Assembly (NCBI GenBank): GCA_019056805.1
Contig: DXJG01000009.1
Coordinates: 269,473 to 301,472 of the forward strand
Direction: 5' to 3'
Length of the DNA: 32,000 nt
From: Candidatus Baldrarchaeota archaeon
Lineage (GTDB): Archaea > Asgardarchaeota > Baldrarchaeia > Baldrarchaeales > DXJG01
The translations under genes and the position numbers were made by a program. The notes under the pieces are model-generated. The model did no database searches and was not told the DNA's origin. It worked only from the letters and a program-made list of their open reading frames with translations. Position 1 is the stretch's first letter. Every line of letters begins with the position of its first letter. Below, piece after piece: positions 19,670 to 24,686 of the stretch.

Positions 19670-20950
19670 ATGCATGAAGGTAAGTCTCATGGTTTTCTTA
19701 GGAGGTTTTCTTTTATTCGTGGAAATGTTCTTGTTGTAGCTGTTACTGTTGGGTTTTGGTCTTTTGGTATGAGAATGACTCAGTCCTATGCTTCTTTATA
19801 CATTCTTGCTCTTGGCGCTTCTCCATTTATTTTGGGCATCATTAGTGCTGTTTCAACTTTTGTTTTAGCTTTTATACGTATTCCTGGAGGATATATTGCC
19901 GATCGATGGGGTAGAAAAAGAGTTATTTATTCTTTAACTTTCTTTGTTGCTTTAACTTATTTTATTTATGCTTTTGCGATCGATTGGACATGGATTTTAG
20001 TTGCTGCAATCCTTTCAAGCTTAAGTTTACTGTACCAACCTGCTCTGCAAGCTATTGTTGCTGACAGTCTTCCCCCTGAAAGTAGAGGCATTGGATACAG
20101 CATCATACGTCTTCTACCCGTAATTGTGGGGATTCCCGGGTCTATCATTGCTTTGATTCTTGTGAAAAATATGGGTCTAGTCCCAGGTATGCGAATAGCT
20201 TATGTCATTGCTGCTGTTATGGGAATTATGGCTGCTTTATTTAGATGGCTTTTCCTAAAAGAAACTTTAACTAGGCATGATGATTTTAAGGCTAATGATG
20301 TTGGAGAAATCTCTAAGGAAGTTTTCTCCAAGCTTTTTGAAGCTATGAAAAAGGTTAGAAAAGATTTCTTGAAGCTTCTCTTTATTTATTGTATGTTTAG
20401 CTTTGCGGCTTCCTTTATTCTTTCAGGTAGAGGTGCTGGGGAAGTTGCTGGAGCTGGTCTTTGGATGGTTTTTGCGATAGATGTTTTAAAGCTTAGTGAA
20501 GTTGATTGGGGATGGATTGTTACTTTTGCTAGAATTGTAACTGCCTTCTGTATTATTCCCATAGGTCTCCTTGTAGACACGATTGGCAGGAAAAAATCTC
20601 TTATAATTTTTCTTTTGTTAGCATCTATTTCCGCGTACTTGTTTATTTATCCGCCTAGTTTTTACATGATTTTCCTTGCATATTCTATTTATGTAATTGC
20701 ACAATTTGGCCTTATGACGGCTTATCAATCAATGAGAGCAGACCTAGTTCCACTAGAAATGAGAGGAAGAGTTATAAGTGGATCTGCATTAATAGTTAGC
20801 CTTGTTTCAGTTCCAGCAAGTATTCTTGGAGGATACTTCTACAATTATGTAGATCCCCGAATACCATTTACAATTTTCGCAATAGTAACCTTGATATGTG
20901 CTATAATTACAGCAATTAGCCTCAGAGAACCAGAAACAAGGGAAAAATAA
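19670..20950 (+). CDS. MFS transporter
   Basis: 12 hydrophobic segments, MFS motif A GGYIADRWGRK repeated as GLLVDTIGRKK, ADSLPPESRG and ADLVPLEMRG. Confidence 0.92.
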   Translation: MHEGKSHGFLRRFSFIRGNVLVVAVTVGFWSFGMRMTQSYASLYILALGASPFILGIISAVSTFVLAFIRIPGGYIADRWGRKRVIYSLTFFVALTYFIYAFAIDWTWILVAAILSSLSLLYQPALQAIVADSLPPESRGIGYSIIRLLPVIVGIPGSIIALILVKNMGLVPGMRIAYVIAAVMGIMAALFRWLFLKETLTRHDDFKANDVGEISKEVFSKLFEAMKKVRKDFLKLLFIYCMFSFAASFILSGRGAGEVAGAGLWMVFAIDVLKLSEVDWGWIVTFARIVTAFCIIPIGLLVDTIGRKKSLIIFLLLASISAYLFIYPPSFYMIFLAYSIYVIAQFGLMTAYQSMRADLVPLEMRGRVISGSALIVSLVSVPASILGGYFYNYVDPRIPFTIFAIVTLICAIITAISLREPETREK

Positions 20951-20962
20951 ACACTAAATATG

Positions 20963-22267
20963 TTATTTATTTTTAAGATAGCTATATAAGTTTATTAAGG
21001 TATTTTCGTCTCCAAATCCTCCTGCTTTCGTTATTAAAAACAGTTCCTTACCTCTATTAAGTTTAACATTGCAGAGAGGTATTCCTGGGAGTACCTCGTC
21101 AACTATGTCTACATGTTTTGCTTTTATACTTTCTAAAAACGCGTAAGCGGTATCGCCTCCAGTTACTATAATTTTTGTTAAATGAGGAACCATGTTTAGA
21201 ATATTATTAGCTATATTGGTTAATGTTTCAAGAATAATATTTCTAAGGTTTGCTTTACTCATATTTTTCTTTGCTGCCAATGTTAGAACTTCATCCACTT
21301 CATTTCGATTATCTGCAGTTCTTATTACAACGTCTACACCATTTTTTAGTTTTGAAACAATCTTCTTAACATATGCATTGTACGGATAGGGTTTTGTGGG
21401 TTCCAGGATTAAAGGTTCTATATCTATCTTGATGTACGGTATCTGAGTTGTGGAAATGAGTTTTTCTACTTGTCTTATAGATATTTCATTTACAGAAGCA
21501 GCAATTATCATTACTAGAGATCTTTTCTTATCCTCTTTCAGTAGTTTTGCTAGAGGGGAAGCCAGCCCTGCGGATCCGCTTGCAACAAGTTTGAAATCGT
21601 CTTTTCTTAATTTTATGTATGCGATAGCTATATTTTCCAAGTGCTGAGTTGTTGCAGCATCAAAAGTTAGTATTTTATACCCAGATTTTATGGCATCTAT
21701 GATTTTTCGCTCTATTTCCAAGCTTCCTTTGGCAACAGTTTCTATGTCTATATGTTTAATGTTATATTTGGACTGAGAGGCAATTATTGTGGGTAAATAG
21801 GATTCTGCGATAGGAGTATGTGGATCTTTTGAAAAAGATGTTTGTGATAAGGGAATGCCTCGAACAAGTTCATATCCACCTACTACCATTCTTCCCTGTT
21901 CCATAAAAGCTGGAGTTAGAAGCACAGCATCTAAATCAAGTATATCTATAAGCGCATCTATTTCTGATCCTATATTACCACGCAAGGTAGAATCTATCTT
22001 TTTATAAATAATATCATAGCCGAGATTAGTTACTAATTTAGATGTTTCTGCTATTTTTTCATACGCTTTTGATGAAGATAACGCTCTAGTTTCTGTATCA
22101 AGTACCAACACATTTATTTCATCATTATCCAAAATAGTTGGTAATGTTAACGGGTCATCTACGATAACGGTACGAGTTTTCAGACCTGCAACTGTGAATT
22201 TCACACCTGTGTCGAGAGCCCCTGTTAAATCGTCAGCTAAAATACATAGTTTTCTGTTCTCTCCCAT
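20963..22267 (-). CDS. Four-carbon acid-sugar kinase (DUF1537; DtnK/DenK/OtnK family)
   Basis: ADDLTGALDTG, DTETR, YKKIDSTLRGNIG, TPAF...GR, TGGDTA, EVLPGIP, TKAGGFG. Confidence 0.92.
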   Translation of the reverse strand: MGENRKLCILADDLTGALDTGVKFTVAGLKTRTVIVDDPLTLPTILDNDEINVLVLDTETRALSSSKAYEKIAETSKLVTNLGYDIIYKKIDSTLRGNIGSEIDALIDILDLDAVLLTPAFMEQGRMVVGGYELVRGIPLSQTSFSKDPHTPIAESYLPTIIASQSKYNIKHIDIETVAKGSLEIERKIIDAIKSGYKILTFDAATTQHLENIAIAYIKLRKDDFKLVASGSAGLASPLAKLLKEDKKRSLVMIIAASVNEISIRQVEKLISTTQIPYIKIDIEPLILEPTKPYPYNAYVKKIVSKLKNGVDVVIRTADNRNEVDEVLTLAAKKNMSKANLRNIILETLTNIANNILNMVPHLTKIIVTGGDTAYAFLESIKAKHVDIVDEVLPGIPLCNVKLNRGKELFLITKAGGFGDENTLINLYSYLKNK

Positions 22268-22345
22268 TTAACTATCCCTGCCTATAGTTAGAGAGTATTC
22301 TTATATTTTGTTGATAGATATTTTGTTAAAGAGTTTAATATAACT

Positions 22346-23656
22346 ATGTTCCATGATTTTAGAGTAGGAGAAATTGTTATGGGAATAAAAACTATTGAAT
22401 TAAACTGCGGAGTTAGTAAAATTCATTTTGATATAGATGAGAGGAACATTTTAGAGATACTGACGCCAAACAGAATTTCTGTAACTAAAAATATTGAGGA
22501 TATTATTGTGGATGCTTTGAAGAAACCTATAAGTACCGCTTCTTTGGAAGAAATTGTTAAAGGTAAGAGAAATATTGTTGTGGTGGTTGATGATTACACC
22601 AGGTTAACACCAGTAGATAAGATAATACCAGTTATTCTGGAGAAGTTTAATGATGCGGGAATAGATGATTCGATGATAAAAATAGTTGTGGCTTTAGGTA
22701 CTCATAGACCAATGACCAAAGATGAGATAGTTTCTAAGTTCGGTAAAGAAATTACTAAGAGGGTTGAAATAGTAAATCATGAGTTTAGAAATCCTGATGC
22801 TTTAATTGATCTAGGTGTTACCGAGAATGATACGCCAGTTCATGTAAATAAGCTAGTTGTAAATGCTGATTTTAAAATCGGTATAGGTAACATTGTCCCT
22901 CATCACATATGTGGTTTTTCAGGTGGAGCTAAAATAGTGGTGCCAGGTGTTTCTGGTGAGACTACAATAGGTGCGGTACATTTACTTAGCACTACAACTA
23001 GACGTAATTATCTTGGAATTGTAGATAATATTGTTAGACATGAAATGGAGAATGTAGCACGAAGAATAAACTTTAATGTCATTGTCAATGTTGTTTTAGA
23101 CCCATTTGGTAACGTTGTGAATGCTGTTTATGGTGATCTGGTTAAAGCTCATAGAACTGGAGTAAAAATCTCTCAACAAATATATGGTGTAAAAACGGTC
23201 AGTGTTAAACCCGATATTGTTATAGCAAATTCTTATCCAGCTATTTTAGATTGGTGGCAAGCTCATAAGGCTCTGTTCCCAGCTGATATGCTTGTTAAAG
23301 ATGGAGGAACGATAATTGTGGTTGCCCCTTGTCCAGAAGGAGTGTCGAAAACTCATCCAGAGTTATTAGAATATGCATGGAAAGATGCGCAAGAAATAAT
23401 TGAGATGGTTAGGAGAGGCGTTGTAAAGGATAAGGTTGCTGCTTCTCTTCTCATTACATGGGCTAAAATACGTGAAAGAGCTGAAGTTTTACTTGTTTCG
23501 CAAGGTCTTTCGCCAGATGAAGTAGAAAAATTAGGTTTTAGATATTTTGAAAATATTGAAAAAGCTCTTGATTACGCGTTTAAGAAGCATGGTAATAATT
23601 CTAAGGTAAGTATTTTGACCCATGCAGCTGAAACTCTACCTGTTGGTGGTGATTAG
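22346..23656 (+). CDS. larA: LarA-family nickel-pincer (NPN)-dependent alpha-hydroxy-acid racemase/epimerase
   Basis: DDYTRLTP, ALGTHRPM, PHHICGFSGGAK, GAVH, WQAHK. Probable start is the ATG at 22379, after aggag (22366-22370). The symbol denotes the family, not proven lactate specificity. Confidence 0.9.
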   Translation: MFHDFRVGEIVMGIKTIELNCGVSKIHFDIDERNILEILTPNRISVTKNIEDIIVDALKKPISTASLEEIVKGKRNIVVVVDDYTRLTPVDKIIPVILEKFNDAGIDDSMIKIVVALGTHRPMTKDEIVSKFGKEITKRVEIVNHEFRNPDALIDLGVTENDTPVHVNKLVVNADFKIGIGNIVPHHICGFSGGAKIVVPGVSGETTIGAVHLLSTTTRRNYLGIVDNIVRHEMENVARRINFNVIVNVVLDPFGNVVNAVYGDLVKAHRTGVKISQQIYGVKTVSVKPDIVIANSYPAILDWWQAHKALFPADMLVKDGGTIIVVAPCPEGVSKTHPELLEYAWKDAQEIIEMVRRGVVKDKVAASLLITWAKIRERAEVLLVSQGLSPDEVEKLGFRYFENIEKALDYAFKKHGNNSKVSILTHAAETLPVGGD

Positions 23657-24686
23657 GTTGTTTAAGCCTTTGATAGCTGTGACTATGGGTGATGCAGCAG
23701 GTTCAGGCCCCGAAATAATTGTAAAAGTCTTACAGAAAAGAGGTGTTCAAGAATTTTGTAAGCCAATTATTATTGGAGATGTAAAAGTATTTAAGAAAGC
23801 TATTAAGATCATTGGAGCTCAAAATATGAATGTAAACGTAGTAGAGAGGGTTGAGGACGCTGTTGATGAATCTAATACGATGAATATTTTGGATCTAGGT
23901 AACGTAGATGTTGAAAAATTGGTTTACGGTAAACCTTCAACAATGACCGGGAAAGCAGCTGCCGAATGTATAATAAAGGCCGTAGAACTTGCAGTGTCAG
24001 GCAGGGTACATGCGATTGCAACCGCGCCAATTAGTAAGGAAGGACTACATATGGCTGGTTATCCCTACTTAGGACACACAGAGTTTCTTGCTGATCTAAC
24101 TAGAACCAAAAATTATGTGATGATGCTTGTGGTCGGAAATTTGAGGGTTTCTCACGTTACTACACATGTACCACTTAGAAAAGCCATCGAGTTAATAAGA
24201 AAGGATAGAATATTGAAGGTGATTAAGCTTACATATAATGCTTTGGTTAATTGGTTTAACATATCTAATCCAAGACTAGCTGTTGCAGGACTTAATCCAC
24301 ATGCAGGGGAAGGAGGACTACTTGGTGATGAGGAAATAAAAGAAATAAGATTGGCCATAGAAGAGGCTAAATCTAAGGGAATAGAAGCTTCAGGACCTTA
24401 TCCTCCTGATTCAATATTTTACAGAGCTTACTATGGAAAAGAATTTGATGCTGTTGTAGCAATGTACCATGATCAAGGCCATATAGCTGTAAAAATGGTG
24501 GGATTTATGGAAGGTGTAAATGTAACACTCGGCTTACCCATAATAAGAACATCGCCAGACCACGGTACTGCATGGGATAAAGCTGGTAAAGGAACAACTG
24601 ATGAAACATCCATGTATAATGCGATAAAGTTAGCAGCAATATTAGCTCAAAACAAATATAGGCAAGCCCGTTCAAATATCCGCTAA
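23622..24686 (+). CDS. pdxA: PdxA-family dehydrogenase (PdxA2-type tetronate-4-phosphate dehydrogenase by context)
   Basis: TMGDAAGSGPEI, TAPISKE, GHTEFL, TTHVPL, NPHAGE, MYHDQG, GLPIIRTSPDHGTA. Probable start is TTG 23658 or GTG 23649, next to the larA stop. Confidence 0.95.
   Translation: MQLKLYLLVVIRLFKPLIAVTMGDAAGSGPEIIVKVLQKRGVQEFCKPIIIGDVKVFKKAIKIIGAQNMNVNVVERVEDAVDESNTMNILDLGNVDVEKLVYGKPSTMTGKAAAECIIKAVELAVSGRVHAIATAPISKEGLHMAGYPYLGHTEFLADLTRTKNYVMMLVVGNLRVSHVTTHVPLRKAIELIRKDRILKVIKLTYNALVNWFNISNPRLAVAGLNPHAGEGGLLGDEEIKEIRLAIEEAKSKGIEASGPYPPDSIFYRAYYGKEFDAVVAMYHDQGHIAVKMVGFMEGVNVTLGLPIIRTSPDHGTAWDKAGKGTTDETSMYNAIKLAAILAQNKYRQARSNIR

Follow-up and report, generated by a model that had tools for sequence, protein, structure and literature searches.

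D-Threonate and D-erythronate are catabolized in described systems by a DUF1537 kinase (DtnK or DenK) together with a PdxA2-type dehydrogenase, which yield dihydroxyacetone phosphate (DHAP) and CO2. In these systems, the kinase and PdxA2 genes lie next to each other with an acid importer, and the pathways as described contain no epimerase (Zhang et al. 2016, cited in PMC9997740 and PMC10580937). We analyzed a stretch of 32,000 nucleotides (hereafter the window) from Candidatus Baldrarchaeota archaeon (GenBank assembly GCA_019056805.1, contig DXJG01000009.1, positions 269,473 to 301,472). The assembly is 91% complete, a figure that bears on the genes reported below as not found in it. The window holds the same kinase-PdxA2 adjacency beside a candidate acid importer, with the same expected products, but a homologue of the lactate racemase LarA (LarAH) is a conserved third member. 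We lean, somewhat beyond an even call, towards the reading that this LarAH is a nickel-pincer nucleotide (NPN)-dependent C2 epimerase that links D-erythronate and D-threonate and feeds the kinase and the PdxA2-type enzyme. The trio probably marks an epimerase-assisted version of the tetronate pathway.

Related chemistry has precedents among LarA homologues. Promiscuous LarAHs epimerize 4-deoxy-threonate/4-deoxy-erythronate (PMC11770544), which places threonate- and erythronate-shaped C2 epimerization within the chemistry of the superfamily. There, it is a side reaction that racemases of lactate and of hydrophobic 2-hydroxy acids carry out on deoxy analogues, and those enzymes, unlike the window LarAH, have no link to a kinase or PdxA2. 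The GntE D-gluconate 2-epimerases (LarAH19/20; PMC7583248, PMC11770544) are likewise LarA homologues that act on C2 of a sugar acid within a catabolic cluster, but their substrate has six carbons. Neither a tetronate epimerase nor a LarA/DUF1537/PdxA2 association is described in the searchable, open-access literature. In the part of the Desguin 2020 supplement covered, groups 1 to 16 of Table S1 show no PdxA/DUF1537 association, and COG1995, COG3395, PdxA and YgbK were not found in the portions of its supplementary files that were covered.

Conservation of the larA-DUF1537-pdxA2 linkage had been set beforehand as a test, in an earlier note that proposed the tetronate pathway from the sequence alone. 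One genome per prokaryotic species was scanned, which gave 579 LarA relatives. The best 80 of these 579, each with flanks of up to 10 kb, were retained; their LarA homologues are 43-55% identical to that of the window. Kinase and PdxA were scored by tblastn with the window's own proteins. Among these best 80 loci, a DUF1537 kinase is present at 44, a PdxA at 45, both at 40 and at least one at 49. The linked genes all lie on the larAH strand, with 38 within 400 bp, and where at least 5 kb is available on both flanks, both partners are present at 31 of 48 loci. These counts are lower bounds because the pair can sit beyond the 10-kb flank, as in Moorella mulderi, where 12-15 kb of one contig separate it from larAH. 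We estimate that genomes carry about one DUF1537 gene at most, and therefore that a position less than 10 kb from any particular gene would arise by chance in well under 1% of cases. The linkage is strongly conserved, and the proposal passes this test.

A search of 5.8 billion proteins with the window LarAH returned many relatives at 46-53% identity, whose only annotation is 'lactate racemase', and two at 86-87%. The latter lie on metagenomic contigs that keep the exact arrangement of the window, divergent kinase included. Among the 80 loci, the closest for LarAH, kinase and PdxA is one and the same Thermoproteota metagenome-assembled genome (MAG; 55, 39 and 62% identity), and the trio therefore travels as a set. 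Carriers include Bacillota (Sporomusa and Pelosinus among them), Chloroflexota, Thermomicrobiota, Syntrophales (Thermodesulfobacteriota), Acidobacteriota, Spirochaetota, Njordarchaeota and one Thermoproteota MAG. Sporomusa silvacetica, S. rhizae, S. aerivorans, Pelosinus fermentans and Moorella mulderi are cultured.

To characterize the neighbors, all open reading frames (ORFs) of the 80 loci were clustered and the recurrent clusters annotated. Importers are tripartite ATP-independent periplasmic (TRAP) DctP/Q/M systems at 23 loci and GntP permeases at 6, and regulators are sigma-54 PrpR-type activators at 13 and RpiR at 5. Subsets of loci carry IlvD/Edd dehydratases (9) or PanB homologues (8), and others UxaA-type dehydratases with a D-2-hydroxyacid dehydrogenase, or DHDPS-type aldolases. 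Judged by these annotations, the companion genes are those of an operon for acid-sugar catabolism. Linked operons encode TRAP binding proteins that share 38-41% identity with the solved proteins 4PDH, 4P9K/4PAK and 4PDD.

Two groups of loci show further gene content. IlvD/Edd-type dehydratases occur with one or two PanB homologues at a subset of loci (L077:1514-7824, L081, L027, L043, L054, L017 and L083), and in several of these clusters a further LarA paralogue, of the LarAH10 family (637.7 bits, cut-off 540), sits in tandem. Speculatively, these clusters might form a second branch, with dehydration of a tetronate to 4-hydroxy-2-oxobutanoate followed by a reverse PanB reaction that releases pyruvate and a C1 unit. 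In Moorella mulderi (L008) and Moorella naiadis (L015), the clade member ends a long co-oriented row with a TRAP DctM, two URO-D-like genes, an Fe-alcohol dehydrogenase, 2-oxoacid dehydrogenase E1-alpha, E1-beta and E2, and two short-chain dehydrogenases/reductases. The kinase-PdxA pair of M. mulderi lies just upstream of this row.

The LarAH belongs to the LarA superfamily by its Lar_N and LarA_C domains and by full-length matches to the structures of LarA and of the malate racemase Mar2, and its AlphaFold2 model has a mean predicted local distance difference test score (pLDDT) of 92.5. Residues were mapped by alignment to Lactiplantibacillus plantarum LarA (5HUQ). The alignment bears out the eight residues that the earlier note had named as kept, namely D72 (D83 in the window protein), R75 (R86), H108 (H120), H174 (H186), K184 (K196), H200 (H212), Q295 (Q305) and K298 (K308), as well as its two substitutions, F175-F176 to H187-I188 and Y294 to W304. 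By alignment, K196 is the NPN-tethering Lys, H212 the Ni-ligand His, H120 and H186 the catalytic His residues, and R86, Q305 and K308 the carboxylate-binding residues; all seven are invariant in 26 homologues.

The pocket for the C-alpha substituent is formed by residues equivalent to F175, F176, W358 and T359 (PMC11770544; I. pallida LarA, bioRxiv 2024.11.28.625916). Reported signatures at these positions are F,F,W,E/Q (LAR), x,x,H/Q,K (MAR), Y,F,H/Q,T (HGR) and E,V,A,H (GntE) (PMC11770544). In the window protein, the first two positions are H and I, and the W358/T359 equivalents fall in V364-A365-A366-S367, where the LarA and Mar2 alignments are two residues out of register and all candidates are small. 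This pocket is unlike the LAR, MAR, HGR and GntE signatures. Across the clade, the key LarA positions are identical in every gene context, the W358/T359 equivalents are A, S or G, and H187, H307, H337 and R231 are also invariant. The sole exception is a Tyr in place of His187 in two Veillonellaceae/Negativicutes MAGs (L033, 5752-9568, and L076). In place of a kinase and PdxA, their clade members are linked to a D-2-hydroxyacid dehydrogenase and a UxaA-type (altronate/galactarate) dehydratase in split form, and may have a shifted specificity.

No NCBIfam LarA-family equivalog reaches its cut-off for the window LarAH, nor for its orthologues from Sporomusa, the Thermoproteota MAG and a Veillonellaceae MAG. 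The lactate racemase LarA model (NF033504) gives 289 against a cut-off of 460, the malate racemase models LarAH6 (the best of all) and LarAH5 give 351 against 500 and 288 against 462, and the putative hexonate epimerase model gives 96.6 against 500. The best solved match is Mar2/LarAH6 of Thermoanaerobacterium thermosaccharolyticum (6D6Z, E 6e-64, full length; PMC7583248), which shares the NPN-tethering Lys, the Ni-binding His and the two catalytic His residues. However, the H/Q-K pair that binds the second carboxylate in Mar2 is replaced by small residues (its 'HK' aligns to 'AS'), Y294 is W304, and the genomic context differs. A malate racemase identity was rejected on these signature residues and on the LarAH5 and LarAH6 scores.

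The two partner enzymes resemble those of the DtnK/DenK pathways but stay below the equivalog cut-offs. The kinase has the two-domain SBD_N and NBD_C architecture (PF07005, 200 bits; PF17042, 101 bits), and the solved structures that match it are the DUF1537 proteins 4XFM and 4XFR (closest) and also 1YZY. Its best NCBIfam model is the D-threonate kinase DtnK (NF047819), at 276.8 bits against a cut-off of 450, compared with 152.8 for the 3-oxo-tetronate kinase model. The same order holds for 41 of 41 linked kinases, each below the cut-off. The PdxA is closer to structures of PdxA2/D-threonate-4-phosphate dehydrogenase (2HI1, 289 bits; 6E85, 283 bits) than to PdxA structures of the pyridoxal 5'-phosphate (PLP) pathway (1PS6 and 1R8K, about 202 bits), and scores 327 against the cut-off of 583 of the D-threonate-4-phosphate dehydrogenase equivalog. 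Its closeness to the PdxA2 structures, the adjacent DUF1537 kinase and the missing PdxJ mark it as PdxA2-type. Neither signature gene of de novo PLP synthesis, PdxJ or PdxS (SOR_SNZ), was found in the source genome. Because the enzyme is PdxA2-type and PdxJ was not found, a role in PLP synthesis is unlikely.

On the tetronate reading, the acid would be imported, here probably by the major facilitator superfamily (MFS) protein and in most relatives by TRAP or GntP transporters. The LarAH, with NPN tethered to K196 and with H120 and H186 as acid and base, would invert C2 by proton-coupled, transient hydride abstraction. D-Erythronate (2R,3R) and D-threonate (2S,3R) differ at C2 only, and this inversion would interconvert them; since LarA inverts C2 only, L-tetronates could not reach the D series by this route. 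The DUF1537 kinase would then phosphorylate the accepted epimer at O4, the PdxA2-type enzyme would oxidize C3, and the resulting beta-keto acid would lose CO2 to give DHAP.

We infer the substrate, the epimerization, its place in the pathway and its direction. We favor action on the free acid, before the kinase, because clade members with the same signature sit in kinase-less clusters with sugar-acid dehydratases. There, they lie beside IlvD/Edd or UxaA-type dehydratases, which act on unphosphorylated acids. A direction from D-erythronate to D-threonate is suggested tentatively, and with clearly less confidence than the epimerization itself, by just two leads, the DtnK-like kinase scores and the ligands ascribed to the related TRAP proteins.

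The window contains no larB, larC or larE, as the earlier note had stated, and the only LarB (253.5 bits, cut-off 175) and LarC (373.6 bits) matches in the genome form a divergent pair on another contig (C4). Some 2.5 kb from the pair is a CbiM/CbiQ/CbiO-type Ni/Co importer (pair and importer within C4:14000-27913). The refuting case named in the earlier note, a genome with no NPN biosynthesis genes, thus does not apply, but the failure to find LarE is a genuine caveat. LarB, LarC and LarE are all present in 4 of 5 other trio carriers, namely two complete Sporomusa genomes, a Chloroflexia chromosome and the Thermoproteota MAG. The source genome also encodes a second LarA homologue (C11:40025-41266; L097:6011-7273, minus strand), which is borderline for the LarAH6 model (498.9 against 500). 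It adjoins the quinolinate synthase NadA and an NAD-kinase/MarR fusion, a neighborhood that deserves mention because NPN derives from nicotinic acid adenine dinucleotide.

Several points weigh against a tetronate epimerase. Zhang and co-workers are said to have shown in 2016 that the DtnK/PdxA2 and DenK/PdxA2 pathways work without an epimerase, and the need for one is therefore not obvious. The substrate assignment amounts to guilt by association, and in about 40% of the clade both kinase and PdxA are missing from the 10 kb around larAH. The best match of the kinase to DtnK, below the cut-off, says little on direction because no NCBIfam model for a D-erythronate kinase turned up in the scans. 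As for the TRAP ligands, we take 4PDH, 4PDD and 4P9K to be D-erythronate complexes, which we treat as a lead only. According to PMC11668362, closed-form TRAP binding-protein structures have pantoate or erythronate bound, mostly co-purified, and are given without entry codes; some of the proteins compared there are also among the matches of the linked operons' binding proteins. Finally, LarE was not found in the source genome, either by profile (TIGR00268, best 26 bits) or by tblastn with the LarE of a same-genus and a same-order genome. The LarAH may therefore lack its cofactor in the source archaeon.

LarE is present in 19 of 26 genomes of the phylum sample. Within the genus, one genome (G001) has LarB, LarC and LarE (LarE 318 bits), another (G003) has LarB and LarC and no LarE, and a third (G002) has none of the three. 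LarB and LarC without LarE, in both the source genome and G003, could reflect an assembly gap or a lineage that finishes the cofactor without canonical LarE. The best PP-loop match in the source genome, a protein of 394 aa on contig C9, was considered as a LarE substitute and rejected; it is a generic PP-loop ATPase with weak QueC-like similarity.

The LarAH could instead invert another acid, such as a C4-C6 sugar acid, glycerate, tartrate/malate or a pantoate-like 2,4-dihydroxy acid, with the kinase and PdxA2 acting on a novel substrate. Its closest characterized relative is a malate racemase, and clade neighbors include IlvD/Edd and UxaA-type dehydratases, PanB, DHDPS-type aldolases and 2-oxoacid dehydrogenase genes. 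Crystals of related TRAP binding proteins have contained pantoate in addition to erythronate (PMC11668362), and genomic context is not always predictive of LarAH activity (Desguin et al., PMC7583248). We nonetheless consider another acid unlikely, if still a serious contender, since the MAR pair at W358/T359 is replaced by small residues and the malate racemase models reach only 288-351 bits against cut-offs of 462-500. To our knowledge, the DUF1537 kinases characterized so far all use four-carbon backbones, and a 3-hydroxy acid is required by PdxA-type enzymes, so that pantoate is excluded (as reported by Zhang et al. 2016 and Carter et al. 2018). If PanB ran in reverse on 4-hydroxy-2-oxobutanoate, this too would indicate a C4 acid. 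A variant that keeps the C4 acid would place the epimerase after the kinase, where it would interconvert 4-phospho-D-erythronate and 4-phospho-D-threonate so that one PdxA2 serves a less selective kinase, and where it might also clear toxic 4-phosphoerythronate. The gene orders of many loci (kinase-PdxA-LarAH or PdxA-LarAH-kinase, with near-zero spacers) fit any order of action, and the Sporomusa and Pelosinus operons are headed by RpiR/SIS regulators, which typically sense sugar phosphates. A pocket enlarged by small residues at W358/T359, and the extra invariant H187, H307, H337 and R231, would also be compatible with a phosphorylated substrate. What makes this variant distinctly unlikely to us is that clade members of identical signature occur in the kinase-less dehydratase clusters, and that the four pocket positions hold no Lys or Arg, unlike those of malate racemases, whose Lys serves a distal anionic group. 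Furthermore, no LarA homologue acting on a phosphorylated substrate appears in the literature covered (PMC11770544, PMC7583248).

The failure to find LarE by hidden Markov model or tblastn raises the possibility that in the source archaeon the LarAH is an inactive apo-protein, or a recent transfer in decay, and that only the kinase-PdxA2 pair works. The same gap in G003, which has LarB and LarC, and the patchy occurrence of the module among relatives, which suggests horizontal acquisition, are consistent with this. However, the gene is intact with all catalytic residues kept, and two independent metagenomic contigs carry it in synteny at 86-87% identity. The genome also retains LarB, LarC, the Ni/Co importer and a second, malate-racemase-like LarA homologue, which would make little sense without a working cofactor, and it is incompletely assembled while a same-genus genome has LarE. 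We therefore find an apo-protein quite improbable. Even further from likely is that the kinase and PdxA2 salvage 4-hydroxy-L-threonine into the PLP pathway while the LarAH is unrelated to tetronates. There is a precedent, as 4-hydroxythreonine can be returned to PLP synthesis through DUF1537 kinases and PdxA2 (Thiaville et al. 2016, cited by PMC9997740). Yet 4-hydroxythreonine is an amino acid and not a 2-hydroxy acid, and hence leaves no role for a LarA, and the operons carry acid importers and catabolic regulators. This reading was rejected because PdxJ, the next enzyme of the route, was not found in the genome.

The clade of the window LarAH is supported at 99/98, separate from co-resident paralogues, and the linkage occurs in every major branch. 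The window LarAH pairs with that of the Thermoproteota MAG (100/99), a pairing that the tree tool flags as two long branches meeting, and the pair joins three Njordarchaeota sequences (96/84). All five members of this archaeal group are linked to kinase and PdxA, and the group is nested among bacterial branches in a midpoint-rooted tree. Of 25 related archaeal genomes, none yielded an orthologue above 36% identity. Patchy among relatives of the source archaeon and nested in this way, the module looks horizontally acquired there. As far as the tree and the sampled genomes indicate, it is mostly bacterial and not an archaeal speciality. The framing of an archaeal pathway in the earlier note therefore does not hold, since the archaeal copies form a small nested subclade of a mainly bacterial clade.

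The layout of the module in the window is given in the table below. It matches the four genes of the earlier note, a kinase divergent from a larA-pdxA pair and a convergent MFS gene, and the ORFs and Pfam/NCBIfam matches agree with them. The two spacings given there were accurate as well, with 12 bp (20951-20962) between the MFS and kinase stops and, for a divergent gap put at about 110 bp, 111 bp when LarA starts at ATG 22379.

Table. Features of the kinase-LarAH-PdxA2 module, in window coordinates
Feature	Position	Strand	Evidence
MFS transporter (426 aa), candidate importer of the acid substrate	19670..20950	+	PF07690 MFS_1, E 1.6e-42
DUF1537 four-carbon acid-sugar kinase (434 aa)	20963..22267	-	PF07005 SBD_N, E 5e-59; PF17042 NBD_C, E 1e-28
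AT-rich divergent spacer (111 bp) between kinase and larAH, presumed shared promoter region	22268..22378	.	sequence only
LarA homologue (425 aa; 436 aa from 22346), candidate NPN-dependent 2-hydroxy-acid C2 epimerase	22379..23656	+	PF09861 Lar_N, E 6e-62; PF21113 LarA_C, E 2e-11
PdxA2-type NAD(P)-dependent decarboxylating dehydrogenase (~342 aa; ORF open from 23622)	23658..24686	+	PF04166 PdxA, E 4e-112

Two LarA starts are possible, ATG 22346 and ATG 22379. We favor the latter because AGGAG lies 7 nt upstream and because the model shows disorder in the first 11 residues of the longer form (pLDDT 34), which have no counterpart in Mar2 or in a 425-aa homologue (P0003); the longer ORF would shorten the divergent spacer to 78 bp. 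LarA ends with the stop TAG 23654-23656. PdxA could start in frame at TTG 23658, 2 nt past this stop, at GTG 23646 or 23649, or at ATG 23622. TTG 23658 is probably the start; the LarA stop falls inside the longer PdxA ORF, and the two genes are tightly coupled whichever start applies. The MFS protein has only weak NCBIfam subfamily matches. The metagenomic loci with 86-87% identity, L095 and L096, retain a gene at its position, where it is cut and unannotated; it was not found in the more distant loci, which have TRAP or GntP importers instead. Upstream of the module is a glycosylation cluster (MOP flippase, nucleotide-sugar dehydrogenase) and downstream are ORFs without assignment; the module is a self-contained insert. 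Elsewhere in the genome, two paralogues of archaeal elongation factor 2 (aEF-2) lie on contig C9 (C9:41609-43762 and C9:309308-311449; 811 and 707 bits). EF-2 marks the source as an archaeon, and the best named matches, at 56-58% identity, come from Lokiarchaeia, Freyarchaeum and Bathyarchaeia.

In its boldest form, the proposal would make the clade a new NPN activity, a tetronate 2-epimerase, and would give the DUF1537/PdxA2 pathway a third variant that depends on this epimerase. Gene transfer would have carried the variant between anaerobic bacteria and on into archaea of the Asgard and Thermoproteota groups, and the cofactor would perhaps be completed by non-LarE sulfur insertion. The last idea comes from the two of three genomes of the genus with LarB and LarC that show no LarE. 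We think it very doubtful that all of this holds together. The window adds an archaeal subclade, an arrangement in which the kinase diverges and an MFS protein is the candidate importer, and the missing LarE. With no curated family model for the clade, thousands of genes are mislabelled 'lactate racemase', and the cultured carriers make the tetronate epimerase reading directly testable. If it is true, tetronates would be a new substrate class for nickel-pincer enzymes, and the conserved, unannotated third gene of a widespread sugar-acid operon would be explained. Both C2 epimers would then be funneled into glycolysis by one kinase/dehydrogenase pair in anaerobes and some archaea.

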